From: Paracoccaceae bacterium
GTDB taxonomy: Bacteria; Pseudomonadota; Alphaproteobacteria; Rhodobacterales; Rhodobacteraceae
Direction of reading: 5' to 3'
Length of the DNA stretch: 64,000 nucleotides
Assembly: GCA_006226775.1 (NCBI GenBank)
Contig: SBGD01000078.1
Location: forward strand, 31,967-95,966
A program made the translations under genes and the position numbers. The notes under the pieces were generated by a model, which was not told the DNA's origin, made no database searches, and saw only the letters and a program-made list of their open reading frames with translations. Each line of letters starts with the position of its first letter. Position 1 is the first letter of the stretch. This document shows positions 46,913 to 50,606 of this stretch, one piece after another.

Positions 46913-47695
46913 TCAGACGTCGAGGTCGATCCAGACCGGCACATGGTCGGACGGCTTGTCGCGGCCGCGCACGGCGCTGTCGATCTGGCAATCGGTCAGC
47001 ATGTCCGCGCAACCCGGGGTCAGCAAGAAATGGTCGATCCGGATGCCGTTGTTGCGCTGCCAGGCCCCGGCCTGGTAATCCCAGAAGGTGTAATGCCCCG
47101 GTTCCGGGTGGCGCGCGCGAAAGGCCTCGGTGAAGCCGAGGTTGACGATTCGGCGGAATGCCGCGCGACTCTCGGGAAGAAATAGCGCATCGCCCTCCCA
47201 TTCGCTCGGCGTCGCTGCATCTTCTGATTGTGGAATTATATTGAAGTCTCCCGTTATAATTGCAGGAGCCTCTGCCGCCATTAGCGATTCGGCCCGGTGG
47301 AACAGCCGCTCCATCCAGGCCAGTTTATAGTCGTATTTCGGCCCCGGCACCGGATTGCCGTTGGGCAGATAGAGCCCGCAGATCCGCACCGCCTGATGCG
47401 TGCCCATCACGGTGGCCTCGATCCAGCGGGCCTGGTCGTCGCTGTCGTCGCCGGGCAAGCCGCGACTGACGTCCTCCAGCGGCAGGCGCGACAGCAGCGC
47501 CACGCCGTTGAACCCCTTTTGGCCATGGGTTTCAACATTGTAGCCCATGTCCTCGAAGTGGTCGCGCGGGAAAGCCTCGTCCACCGACTTGATTTCCTGG
47601 AGCACCGCGACATCCGGCTCGGCCTCCTTGAGCCAATCCGTCAGCGCGCCAATGCGCGCCTTGATACCGTTGATGTTGAATGTCGCGATCTTCAT
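46913..47695 (-). CDS. xth: Exodeoxyribonuclease III
   Basis: IATFNINGIKAR, LQEIK, GFNGVA, YLPNGNP, GDFN, RIDH.L, SDHVPV. Confidence 0.96.
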   Translation of the reverse strand: MKIATFNINGIKARIGALTDWLKEAEPDVAVLQEIKSVDEAFPRDHFEDMGYNVETHGQKGFNGVALLSRLPLEDVSRGLPGDDSDDQARWIEATVMGTHQAVRICGLYLPNGNPVPGPKYDYKLAWMERLFHRAESLMAAEAPAIITGDFNIIPQSEDAATPSEWEGDALFLPESRAAFRRIVNLGFTEAFRARHPEPGHYTFWDYQAGAWQRNNGIRIDHFLLTPGCADMLTDCQIDSAVRGRDKPSDHVPVWIDLDV

Positions 47696-47889
47696 GGGGC
47701 GCCCTCCGTCGCGACAGACCTAGCCTTTGGAATGGGCGGGCGACAAGCGAAATCAATTGCAGCCACGGCGCCGATTCGGGTGGATGATGGGGCACAACCC
47801 GCATTTTTCGGGGGGTTTTGGGCTATGCCCATTATTTGTGCCGATCCGGTTTTATATAAATTTCGCAGGTATATGTATACCATATCTTG

Positions 47890-47912
47890 TGTGGATAACT
47901 GAGTTATCCACA
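47890..47912. promoter_or_regulatory. Inverted pair of perfect DnaA-box 9-mers forming an 11-1-11 palindrome
   Basis: TGTGGATAACT-G-AGTTATCCACA in an AT-rich patch (42 of 120 nt G+C over 47821-47940 by hand count). Confidence 0.6.
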
Positions 47913-48005
47913 AGCTATAGTTGAAATAAGATTTGAAATGCCCGGTAAGGCAGAGAATTCTGGGTGGGCAATCAACGCCAACCAACACCAACCCAGGAGA
48001 TAACC

Positions 48006-48173
48006 ATGCTGGCACTTGTTCAAGAAACCCTTAACGAAACCGAAGAGCTGGTCATCGAGACCACCGAGATCTCGACCGGCGATCACATCGACACGATGAT
48101 GTGCGCTTCCATCGACGATGGCACCGACATGTTCGACGGTGACCAGGTCCAGGCGATGATGTGCGCCTCGTAA
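48006..48173 (+). CDS. 55-aa acidic peptide with duplicated MMCAS motif (candidate RiPP precursor)
   Basis: RBS AGGAGA upstream; MLALVQETLNETEELVIETTEISTGDHIDTMMCASIDDGTDMFDGDQVQAMMCAS; synonymous differences between the two repeats. Confidence 0.75.
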   Translation: MLALVQETLNETEELVIETTEISTGDHIDTMMCASIDDGTDMFDGDQVQAMMCAS

Positions 48174-48235
48174 GAGCCGCGCTCTTCTGACACGCCCGGG
48201 CCGGGCGCATTTGATACGCATCGGAGGACTGATCC

Positions 48236-49336
48236 ATGTCGAACGTTGTCTATTTGAATGTGCCCGGCCCCAAGGAGCGGCGGGCCGCGCGCAGCGGCGC
48301 GCTCATCCGCAGCTTTGCCGCGCATCGCCGCGGTCCCGAGGACGTGTTCTGGCTCAAGGAAAATGCCGAGCTTCTGAACATCCTCGAAAACACCGGCCAG
48401 GCGGTTCCCGAAACCCTTCTGGAGCCCTACGCCGCATTCTACGAGAATGCGCGCGACCGGCTGGCCTTCTTTCCGCAGTATTACCGCTTCATCCTGTCGC
48501 TCACGCTCGATCTCGAAGCCCTTGGTCTGCGCGGGGATTCGGCGGAAGCCATGTGTGCCTGGGCGCAGCGCATGGATCTGGCCGGCGGCGAGACCTCCGA
48601 TATCCAGCGCCTTGAAGCCTATCGGCTGCTTCAGCGCCGCGGGTTTGATCCGCTGGACGACCAGGGTGGCGCCGAAGCGCGTCTGCGTGACTTCATTGCG
48701 CATCCGGAACGCTTCGCATTGCCCAACAAAAAGGCTGCCTTCGAGCTCACCCACATCGTATTCTACCTGTCGGAATATGGCAGGAAAGACCCGGGTCTCG
48801 GGCCGGATGCGCTGCGGTCGCTGGAGAACGCGGGCATTTTGGCTTTTCTTGACGGGAACCTCGATCTTCTTGCTGAGATCTGCGTGGCGATGCGCTATGC
48901 AGGGTACAACCCTTCCGGGATTTGGGAAGATTGGGTCGCTCGCAAGATGAAAGACTTTCACATCACCGAACTGAACGACGGCGGCCCGGGCCAGCGGCCG
49001 GTCGCGGATGCCTATCACGAATACCTGACCGGATCCTGGCTGGCCGGCACCAAGGGCGAGGCGCTCTTTGCCGAGGTGCCGGTCTGCCGGCAGGGCAGCG
49101 GCCAGCGGCTGGCGATCAACCGCCCTGCAGGCCAGAAGGGCGCGTTGCGCGAGATCTCGGTGCAATTGTTCCGCATGGGGGCAGAGCGTTGCGAGGCCTG
49201 GTCGCCAATGCGCGCCCGGATCGACGCCGCGCTGACCGCGCCGGCGCGCCAGCGACTGGAACAGGCGGAAGCCTCGACCTGCCAGTTCGAGGCCTTTTTC
49301 GAAGATTTCGCGCGGGCCCAGAAGGTGAGTGCATGA
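48236..49336 (+). CDS. Uncharacterised 366-aa helical protein, candidate peptide-modifying enzyme
   Basis: RBS GGAGG; motifs FELTHIVFYLSEYG, DLLAEI, DAYHEY; no recognised catalytic family. Confidence 0.75.
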   Translation: MSNVVYLNVPGPKERRAARSGALIRSFAAHRRGPEDVFWLKENAELLNILENTGQAVPETLLEPYAAFYENARDRLAFFPQYYRFILSLTLDLEALGLRGDSAEAMCAWAQRMDLAGGETSDIQRLEAYRLLQRRGFDPLDDQGGAEARLRDFIAHPERFALPNKKAAFELTHIVFYLSEYGRKDPGLGPDALRSLENAGILAFLDGNLDLLAEICVAMRYAGYNPSGIWEDWVARKMKDFHITELNDGGPGQRPVADAYHEYLTGSWLAGTKGEALFAEVPVCRQGSGQRLAINRPAGQKGALREISVQLFRMGAERCEAWSPMRARIDAALTAPARQRLEQAEASTCQFEAFFEDFARAQKVSA

Positions 49337-50280
49337 CCGCTGCTCTGAACAGACTGAGCCTGCCTGTTCTCGGCACCATATTGGTCGTGATCTACACCGT
49401 GCTGATCACCTTTTCCGATGCGCTGACAAAATACCTGGCGCAATTTTACGAAGCACCGCAGCTTCTGTCGATCGTGGCACTGCTGATCGCGCTGATGTCG
49501 CTGGGCTCGGGACGGATCGGCAAGCATCGCACCCGCGGCAGCCTGCGCACAAGCTGTCCCGGCACCATGGCGCTGCGCGCGGGGCTGACGGTTCTGGCGA
49601 CGGTGATGTTCTTTCACGCGCTGGCCACGCTGGTCTTTGCCCAGGTCTTTTTGTTCATCGCGCTGGTGCCCCTGTTCTCGGCGCTGATGTCCGGGCCCAT
49701 CCTGGGCGAGAAGGTGCGGTTTTCGGTCTGGATCGCGCTGGCCTGCGGCTTTGCGGGCGTGTTGTGCATGGTCAAGGTGGACTTGTCCGCCATCACACCG
49801 GGTCACATCAGTGCCTTCATCGGCGCGGTCTCGGGCACGGCGTCGATCGTGCTGGCGCGCTACATCGGCCGGTACGAGGACAATTCACTGGCCCAGGTCT
49901 TCTATCCGCAAACGGCGGTTTTCCTGTCGATGGTGCTGCTGGCACCGGCGGGCTGGCAGCCGATGCCGCTCTTTGACCTGATGCTGGCCGTGGCCTGCGC
50001 GGTGGTGCTGTTTTCCGCGCGGCTGTTGCTGGTGATCGCGCTGCGGCACCTGACGGCCTATGCGGTGACGCCGCTGATGAACCTGCAATTCGTCTGGATG
50101 GTGGTGATCGGCTTCGTGGTCTTCCGCGAAGTGCCGGAAGCCAGTACCTTTTTCGGCGCGGTCATCGTCATGGTCTCGGGCGGCTACCTGATCTTCGACC
50201 AGCACCAGCGTGGCAGGGAAATCGCGGCAAAGCCCGCCTCCTGGGGCAGCAAGCCGGTGCTCAGCCGCGCGGCCAACTGA
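49333..50280 (+). CDS. DMT/EamA family transporter
   Basis: About 10 hydrophobic helices, two EamA halves (LGEKV...W; F.EVP...GA..VM.SG); ATGA overlap with upstream gene. Confidence 0.9.
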   Translation: MTAALNRLSLPVLGTILVVIYTVLITFSDALTKYLAQFYEAPQLLSIVALLIALMSLGSGRIGKHRTRGSLRTSCPGTMALRAGLTVLATVMFFHALATLVFAQVFLFIALVPLFSALMSGPILGEKVRFSVWIALACGFAGVLCMVKVDLSAITPGHISAFIGAVSGTASIVLARYIGRYEDNSLAQVFYPQTAVFLSMVLLAPAGWQPMPLFDLMLAVACAVVLFSARLLLVIALRHLTAYAVTPLMNLQFVWMVVIGFVVFREVPEASTFFGAVIVMVSGGYLIFDQHQRGREIAAKPASWGSKPVLSRAAN

Positions 50281-50282
50281 CC

Positions 50283-50606
50283 TCAGATCGAGAAGGACGT
50301 GCCGCAGCCGCAGGAACTGCTGGCATTGGGGTTGTTGATCACGAAGCGCGCGCCGATCAGCTCTTCGCTGAAATCGATCACCGCCTCGGCAAGGAAGGGC
50401 AGCGAGACGGCGTCGACCACGACCTTTTCGCCGCAGCCTTCCAGCACCAGGTCGTCATCGGACACGTCATCCAGCCGGATGTCGTATTGAAATCCCGAAC
50501 ATCCGCCGCCTTCGACGGCCACGCGCAGGGCCTTTCCGTCGTCGGCAGCCCCGATCTCGGCCAGGCGGGCAAAGGCCCTTTCTGTCACTTTCGGCGGCAA
50601 CTGCAT
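50283..50606 (-). CDS. erpA: Fe-S cluster insertion protein (HesB/IscA family)
   Basis: VEGGGCSGFQY, NPNASSSCGCGTSF. Confidence 0.9.
   Translation of the reverse strand: MQLPPKVTERAFARLAEIGAADDGKALRVAVEGGGCSGFQYDIRLDDVSDDDLVLEGCGEKVVVDAVSLPFLAEAVIDFSEELIGARFVINNPNASSSCGCGTSFSI

Follow-up and report, generated by a model that had tools for sequence, protein, structure and literature searches.

The question raised by this locus is what a 55-residue peptide with two short Met- and Cys-containing repeats is for, and why it is encoded ahead of a much larger protein and a transporter. The window (the whole stretch of 64,000 nucleotides analyzed here, from contig SBGD01000078.1 of a Paracoccaceae bacterium) holds three tightly spaced genes on the forward strand, flanked by xthA and an erpA-like gene. 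The first encodes the precursor-like peptide (48006–48173; ATG at 48006, stop codon at 48171–48173). The second encodes a 366-residue protein of the Pfam family DUF6902, a candidate peptide-modifying enzyme (48236–49336). The third encodes a 315-residue transporter with a Pfam EamA match, of the drug/metabolite transporter (DMT) type (49333–50280), and its ATG (49333) overlaps the TGA of the DUF6902 gene (49334–49336) as ATGA. Comparison with related loci suggests that the three genes probably form an operon that serves to make a peptide on the ribosome, process it enzymatically and export it, in other words an undescribed pathway resembling those of ribosomally synthesized and post-translationally modified peptides (RiPPs). 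The initial annotation had proposed such a system from the 55-residue open reading frame (ORF) with its ribosome binding site (RBS), a hairpin, the 366-residue gene and the ATGA overlap with the EamA gene. All of these elements are where it had placed them, and no known RiPP class matches the locus, as it had also said.

The evidence that carries this reading comes from relatives of the DUF6902 gene. When one genome per species was scanned for the enzyme pattern, such a relative turned up in at least 587 species, and 80 loci were retrieved. A co-oriented ORF for a repeat peptide lies upstream of the enzyme gene in 77–78 of the 78 loci that could be assessed, across many genera; three others were left out for too little upstream sequence or runs of N. 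The presence of a repeat peptide ahead of the enzyme gene is far beyond chance, and the pairing of peptide and DUF6902 protein is essentially universal across the DUF6902 homologues. The initial annotation had asked whether homologues of its enzyme carry an upstream motif-bearing peptide; they do, and the idea survives the comparison. The peptides are 55–242 residues long (some reach 242 or more) and acidic, with 11% Asp plus Glu and 2% Lys plus Arg. A conserved N-terminus (M-x-A-[QL]-x-K), a [LM]FDG[DE] box that often stands ahead of the first unit, and 2–15 units per peptide together give the layout of a RiPP precursor, a leader followed by one or more cores. The unit reads G-[DE]-x-[TV]-x-[MLA]-[FMY]-x-[S/T/C]-x-x, and most of the ORFs terminate exactly at a core.

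The commonest cores are MFSSGS and MFTSGS, and lineage variants include LFPSGS, MFTSGL, LFTTSL, LFSTSM, FTSWSG, MFSSCS, MFCSAS and MFSSAS; the group to which the window belongs has MMC[A/V/C]S and MMSCS. When 480 units were aligned on the core, Gly was found in 95% at position -4, Asp or Glu in 90% at -3, and Thr or Val in 92% at -1, all three positions lying outside the search pattern with which the units were collected. When 439 units were anchored only on G-[DE]-x-[TVI], position 2 was Phe, Met or Tyr in 94%, and position 4 was Ser in 83%, Thr in 13% and Cys in 3% (about 99% for the three together). Position 4 is therefore the best candidate for the site of chemistry, rather than Cys, Ser and Met in general. 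The proposal of the initial annotation that all three residue types are modified is not borne out, as the comparison singles out position 4 only. Nor does its sulfur-rich product or metallophore agree with the family, in which most cores, such as MFSSGS, have Ser or Thr and no Cys; sulfur in the core is a feature of a clade and not of the family. In Sedimentitalea arenosa (L016) and at loci L044 and L073, Cys occurs at other core positions (MFCSAS, MFSSCS and MFSTSC) and position 4 stays Ser or Thr. At the Sedimentitalea locus, the end of the peptide ORF also lies about 400 nt from the enzyme gene, compared to the usual 60 nt or so. Some precursors (L033, L044, L052, L064 and L074) have back-to-back cores with two-residue gaps (MFTSGLVQMFTSGL, MFSSCSVELFSSCS and LFTSGSTALFTSGS), so the G-[DE]-x-[TV] box is not required before every core.

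The peptide of the window, MLALVQETLNETEELVIETTEISTGDHIDTMMCASIDDGTDMFDGDQVQAMMCAS, has a leader that starts MLALVQETLNE and two cassettes of 11 residues each, GDHIDTMMCAS (48078–48110) and GDQVQAMMCAS (48138–48170), the last residue of the second ending the ORF. An MFDGD box sits in the spacer between them. The cassettes match the family register without a gap, G-D-Q-V-Q-A1-M2-M3-C4-A5-S6 against G-D-A-T-E-M1-F2-S3-S4-G5-S6, which places the Cys at core position 4, where relatives have a nearly invariant Ser or Thr. The peptide has no Pfam or NCBIfam match. A Nif11- or NHLP-like leader, suggested by a resemblance of the small ORFs of divergent homologues, was rejected, since window-type peptides, MFSSGS-type peptides and the divergent small ORFs gave no Pfam or NCBIfam match even at E ≤ 10. 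Among the orthologues of the window peptide at the five loci L001–L005, conserved residues carry synonymous changes, and the variable core position 5 is Ala, Val or Cys, the two cassettes of any one genome always agreeing (MMCAS/MMCAS, MMCVS/MMCVS or MMCCS/MMCCS). The peptide gene is under protein-level selection, and concerted change of position 5 would follow if the two cassettes have to give one and the same product. The window carries a distinct Cys-type, two-cassette variant of the Marinovum/Primorskyibacter group; Marinovum algicola, a laboratory isolate, has MMCVS cores.

Peptide type also follows the enzyme. A maximum-likelihood tree was built from 81 enzymes, and those behind MM[CS]xS peptides, eight in all, form one clade (support 100/99), sister to the 73 others; its members include the window, Marinovum, two Primorskyibacter and 'Phaeobacter sp. 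J2-8'. Other core types likewise cluster on the enzyme tree. Two residues, R159 (Thr elsewhere) and G207 (Gln elsewhere), mark the MM[CS]xS clade against at least 90% of the other enzymes, and both adjoin invariant residues.

Transcription could be followed in a close relative. For the sequence of the window itself, the runs found were of DNA type, with no RNA runs. For the Marinovum algicola locus that is 79% identical (L001), four RNA data sets from culture contain assembled contigs of a Marinovum-like organism that start 12–18 nt before the peptide ATG, cover the peptide gene, the stem-loop and the whole enzyme gene, and extend into the beginning of the EamA gene. The peptide, the enzyme and the start of the EamA gene are thus co-transcribed in this relative. 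In two runs the 5' end of the contig is joined directly to the adapter, which suggests a real RNA end. The depth of these contigs is 38–84, compared to 3–9 for contigs of the distal EamA gene and erpA and none for xthA. Contig depth is flat by construction and carries no signal on attenuation at the stem-loop.

The 366-residue protein matches DUF6902 (PF21843) over nearly its full length, with residues 1–361 on profile positions 1–351 (454.1 bits against a gathering score of 27 bits, E = 3.7e-136). Residues 28–226 also match DUF6895 (PF21836) at 82.7 bits (cut-off 23.8 bits, E = 3.8e-23), far below the DUF6902 score, and no NCBIfam model matches. The initial annotation had seen no recognizable classical family, which can now be refined to a full-length DUF6902 match and a second match above cut-off to DUF6895. 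The family is small, as an exhaustive profile search of 1.84 billion representatives returned only 213 DUF6902 clusters. An AlphaFold2 model of the protein is all-helical with 19 helices (predicted local distance difference test 88.8, predicted template modeling score 0.89). A profile search of PDB sequences found no relative, and neither did a Foldseek search of the PDB with the model (best E = 0.07). The best Foldseek template modeling scores were 0.36–0.39 (E > 0.3), for drimenol synthases and the C3b thioester (TED) domain; these are at most a weak hint that the model may have an α/α-barrel-like arrangement, LanC-like or terpene-cyclase-like. The name 'iron-containing redox enzyme' that one source gives to a 52% identical homologue, implying a heme-oxygenase-like protein, was rejected, since it has no Pfam or NCBIfam support and the fold is absent from the top Foldseek matches. 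A full-text literature search found no paper mentioning DUF6902 or the strings MFSSGS, MFTSGS or FSSGSAP, and nothing relevant turned up on RiPPs or EamA in roseobacters.

Across 81 sequences, 78 residues are near-invariant, including E42, E45, D92, E94, E119, E170-x-x-H173, D210, E214, C216 and D258-x-x-H261. A confident model with many invariant charged residues is what an active site would show, and the invariant His/Asp/Glu/Cys set suggests a metal or acid-base site without being diagnostic of one. The title of one paper (Shi et al., ACS Catal. 2026, 16:1757, doi 10.1021/acscatal.5c08590, cited in PMC13352647 and PMC13453073) describes a DUF6895 member as a lasso-peptide epimerase. From this homology, epimerization at Cα is the leading candidate for the chemistry. 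About equally possible, in view of the two (D/E)xxH motifs, the several invariant carboxylates and the one invariant Cys, is a metal-dependent reaction at the side chain of the Ser, Thr or Cys or at the backbone beside it.

The product of the third gene matches EamA (PF00892) in two stretches (53.9 bits against a cut-off of 28.2 bits, E = 2.9e-14), as expected for an EamA/DMT carrier with two repeats and about ten transmembrane helices; a match to TIGR00950 falls below its cut-off. An EamA gene follows the enzyme gene in about 64 of the 80 loci. The exporter named by the initial annotation is accordingly an accessory part of the cassette.

Taken together, the pathway might run as follows. The 55-residue peptide would be translated, and the stem-loop behind its gene may hold the level of the peptide message above that of the enzyme message. 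The DUF6902 protein would then bind the leader (M-x-A-[QL]-x-K ... [LM]FDG[DE]), the G-[DE]-x-[TV] box before the cores, or both, and would modify each core at or around position 4, Cys here and Ser or Thr in most relatives. Housekeeping peptidases would release the short cores, and the DMT carrier would export the small product.

Several observations weigh against this reading of a modified and exported peptide. The cassette and its flanks (xthA, erpA and a dGTPase gene) encode no protease, as the initial annotation had remarked, and no RiPP recognition element (RRE) domain is recognizable. As the protein resembles no solved structure, 'enzyme' is a term drawn from conservation, and the DUF6895 epimerase is known here by the title of its paper alone. 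EamA is missing from about 16 of the loci. The RNA support consists of assembled contigs from a Marinovum-like relative, an organism other than that of the window. A single-copy, syntenic and vertically inherited cassette would be unusual for an antibiotic-type RiPP, and another role could be possible. Modification, cleavage, export and product are predictions from comparison. That comparison supports the RiPP-like reading well, through the near-universal upstream peptide, the fixed register of its units, the tracking of peptide type with enzyme clade, the concerted change of cores and the co-transcription in a relative, together with a nearest characterized relative that is, by its title, a RiPP-tailoring enzyme; it lends no support to the sulfur chemistry or the metallophore.

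The alternative that survives best is that the acidic repeat peptide is never processed and interacts non-covalently with the DUF6902 protein, whose partner, client or regulator it would be, perhaps as a bait, anti-factor or scaffolded ligand with several identical binding motifs, EamA being functionally unrelated. Such a role would sit well with the lack of a protease and of a known catalytic fold, with a cassette that resembles the core genome in being single-copy and syntenic, and with an EamA gene that is dispensable in about 20% of loci. The small ORFs beside some distant homologues are also non-repetitive and could be folded proteins. This explanation is nevertheless improbable, as it leaves unexplained why a strict six-residue core is present in 2–15 copies, with minimal two-residue spacers in some species, why the ORFs end exactly at a core, and why cassettes change in concert. 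An invariant nucleophile at one position is typical of substrates and not of binding repeats, and the exporter gene follows close behind the enzyme gene in most loci, with a stop/start overlap in the window.

A somewhat weaker alternative accepts the peptide as a true precursor and assigns the DUF6902 protein another task: it would process the precursor as a peptidase, serve in immunity or binding, or deliver unmodified cores to the exporter as their carrier. The cores do need to be released though no peptidase is encoded, and the fold is one of no assigned function. Searches of Pfam and NCBIfam found no peptidase motifs or family matches in the protein, its kinship to DUF6895 includes a member reported by title as an epimerase, and the invariant His/Asp/Glu/Cys set fits a metal site, if not diagnostically. 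This reading is considered quite unlikely.

Between the peptide and enzyme genes, a GC-rich stem-loop (CGCCCG-GGC-CGGGCG, 48193–48207, forward strand) has a 6-bp stem and a 3-nt loop. The spacer of the window folds no better than shuffled sequence (z = -0.13), and 52 of 73 related loci have a GC-rich stem-loop at the same position with differing stem sequences. It may serve as an attenuator or a stabilizer. EamA-family carriers export cysteine and O-acetylserine. The short ORF, with its hairpin, a downstream EamA gene and repeats rich in Met and Cys here and in Ser and Thr elsewhere, might on this basis be a regulatory leader peptide at which stalling on Met, Cys or Ser codons attenuates an amino-acid exporter operon, but this is very improbable given that homologous ORFs reach 242 residues or more with up to 15 units, that the conserved Gly, Asp/Glu, Phe and leader N-terminus play no part in codon sensing, that the invariable partner is the enzyme and not EamA, and that the hairpin has no clear U-tract, no alternative pairing was found and the RNA contigs read through it.

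The region ahead of the peptide gene may add a regulatory element to the proposed operon. An inverted pair of perfect DnaA-box 9-mers, TGTGGATAA (47890–47898) and TTATCCACA (47904–47912), lies about 95–115 nt upstream of the peptide ATG, and these are the only perfect DnaA boxes in the window. The TGTGGATAA box is kept in the spacer between xthA and the peptide gene in most related loci (at about 3050–3670 in L006–L080), most often in the form of two direct repeats spaced by 76 bp, with T-rich sequence after each. In the clade of the window, the first box is lost and the second is paired with the inverted TTATCCACA. No DnaA-box-like site was found at the xthA-erpA junction in 10 cassette-less genomes of the same family. 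The order of upstream blocks across genera is GATTCG, TGTGGATAA with its T-tract, a second TGTGGATAA 76 bp on, AGAAAAA, GTGCAAGCGTnGAGGGGCGATCAAC and the RBS. A role of these boxes in a chromosomal origin (oriC) was rejected, since the GC skew is positive on both sides with no switch and the boxes are absent from the cassette-less junctions. The simplest reading is that DnaA would act as a transcription factor at the predicted boxes.

Other features of this region are less specific. Conserved non-coding blocks at about 47780–47990 of the window comprise GATTCG, of GANTC type, about 250 nt upstream, and an AGAAAAA...TTT block. In most genera GTGCAAGCGTnGAGGGGCGATCAAC is found about 20–50 nt before the ATG, and it could be a promoter for some sigma factor or an element of the 5' untranslated region. 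A consensus scan gave a σ70-like promoter candidate, TGGATA-18 nt-TATAGT (47892–47921, forward strand), whose -35 element overlaps the DnaA box; a TA-rich hexamer with similar spacing is present in the aligned upstream regions of related loci. The RNA 5' ends of the relative are closer to the ATG, and the true start site may lie elsewhere. Judged from the letters, the RBS of the peptide gene is AGGAG (47995–47999), 6 nt ahead of the ATG, and that of the DUF6902 gene is GGAGG (48223–48227).

A more detailed picture can be offered tentatively, and is in its entirety rather doubtful. DUF6902 may represent a new, probably metal-dependent class of maturase that acts on an invariant Ser, Thr or Cys of short, repeated cores. 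The product might be a conserved roseobacter exometabolite, signal- or cofactor-like, whose synthesis is coupled through DnaA and its conserved boxes to replication or growth state, with a thiol-bearing version in the Marinovum clade.

The cassette occupies one chromosomal site. In the window, it is bounded by xthA on the left (46913–47695, minus strand) and the erpA-like gene on the right (50283–50606, minus strand). In each locus with visible flanks, the genes run xthA (-), small ORF (+), DUF6902 (+), usually EamA (+), erpA (-) and dGTPase (+). The cassette is present in 77 of 301 sampled genera of Rhodobacteraceae, about a quarter, and is single-copy, chromosomal, syntenic and vertically inherited; no cassette was found in 72,556 plasmids. 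Of 10 genomes from this family that lack DUF6902, seven have xthA and erpA directly side by side, with gaps down to 36 nt, so the cassette is a unit that was either inserted or lost. Where additional DNA follows the cassette, no accessory gene recurred among the loci. As a fraction of record length, the cassette is found at 0.494 and 0.4995 in two complete chromosomes (L042 and L043) and at 0.39–0.63 in others; if the records begin at dnaA, it would sit roughly opposite the origin. Two records with Gammaproteobacteria labels, a Granulosicoccus sp. metagenome-assembled genome (L058) and Microbulbifer sp. S227A (P0036), contain a roseobacter-type cassette. In L058, the xthA, erpA and dGTPase flanks are 74–82% identical to those of the window and the enzyme nests in a Rhodobacteraceae clade. 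A mis-binned contig or mislabeled record is probably the explanation, rather than gene transfer.

Divergent DUF6902-like genes on metagenomic contigs of 39–56% G+C each have a small ORF directly upstream. One group encodes non-repeat peptides of 57–64 residues that end ...D-x-[DN]-K-Y-x-F-x-[VI]-x-K. Another (L081, L100, L101 and L102) encodes small proteins of 77–92 residues that carry a signal peptide of the Sec type, along with a motif, [DE]-[ML]-Y-[TA]-G, that recalls the cores of the roseobacter peptides; here the upstream protein is about 535 residues long. A CadC/ToxR-like regulator beside the low-GC homologues was considered and rejected, the only match of this upstream protein being a faint one to Trans_reg_C (E = 0.24). 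The small ORF and DUF6902-like protein form the conserved module, whose product would be exported with the help of either a DMT carrier or a signal peptide. At L086–L088 (3420–4550), the small ORF and DUF6902-like gene follow a gene for an ApbC/Mrp-type Fe-S cluster carrier. ErpA, the neighbor of the roseobacter cassette, is also an Fe-S carrier, and the parallel may be coincidence. At L083–L085, two tandem small ORFs precede the DUF6902-like gene between reverse-transcriptase (RVT_1) and resolvase genes, a mobile-looking context unlike the fixed roseobacter site.

Coastal oceans are rich in bacteria of the roseobacter group, which are also numerous in communities on algae, in sponges and in biofilms. 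A cassette that is widespread at one chromosomal site, in at least 587 species genomes, is undescribed in the literature searched. If the proposed pathway is correct, it would provide a new enzyme family, and probably a new reaction, for ribosomal peptide biosynthesis, a function for DUF6902, and a widespread, exported small molecule that has so far escaped notice in the interactions of marine bacteria. Cores that differ naturally in having Ser, Thr or Cys at the same position offer a ready substrate panel for working out the chemistry, and regulation of a peptide-product operon through conserved upstream DnaA boxes would be unusual. New in this analysis are the gap-free register, in which Cys falls on the invariant position, the Cys-type clade, whose cassettes change in concert, the RNA evidence from a relative, the DnaA boxes that accompany the cassette, and the signal-peptide variant in distant homologues.

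Among known systems, the DUF6895 epimerase is related by sequence (residues 28–226), and each protein is encoded beside the gene of a ribosomal peptide substrate, as far as the title of that paper indicates. The best family here is DUF6902, however, the substrate is a linear repeat with multiple cores, and no lasso cyclase, leader peptidase or RRE gene lies nearby; lasso cluster genes (macrolactam synthetase, leader peptidase/RRE and lasso precursor) were found neither in the flanks of the window nor in the 80 or so loci. Multi-core RiPPs such as cyanobactins, microviridin-type graspetides, dikaritins such as ustiloxin, and triceptides share several short cores with recognition or spacer sequences, a variable copy number and often an exporter alongside. 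Their PatA/PatG proteases, ATP-grasp ligases, DUF3328 oxidases and radical S-adenosylmethionine (SAM) enzymes have no counterpart here, where the candidate maturase has an uncharacterized fold. Bufferins modified by multinuclear non-heme iron-dependent oxidative enzymes (MNIOs) differ in that no DUF692/MNIO or DUF2063 partner is present and the roseobacter peptides have a DMT carrier instead of a signal peptide. In the low-GC DUF6902 branch, the Sec-type signal peptide does recall their cytoplasmic modification followed by Sec export, and a metal-dependent enzyme is possible in both. Pyrroloquinoline quinone (PQQ, from PqqA), mycofactocin (from MftA) and pearlin-type products arise from a single fixed core through radical SAM or other known enzymes, unlike the repeated and lineage-variable cores seen here (MFSSGS, FTSWSG, LFTTSL and MMCAS). 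They nonetheless share a short peptide as the scaffold for a tiny product and a conserved, vertically inherited chromosomal locus, and a DMT-type small-molecule carrier would fit a product of that size.

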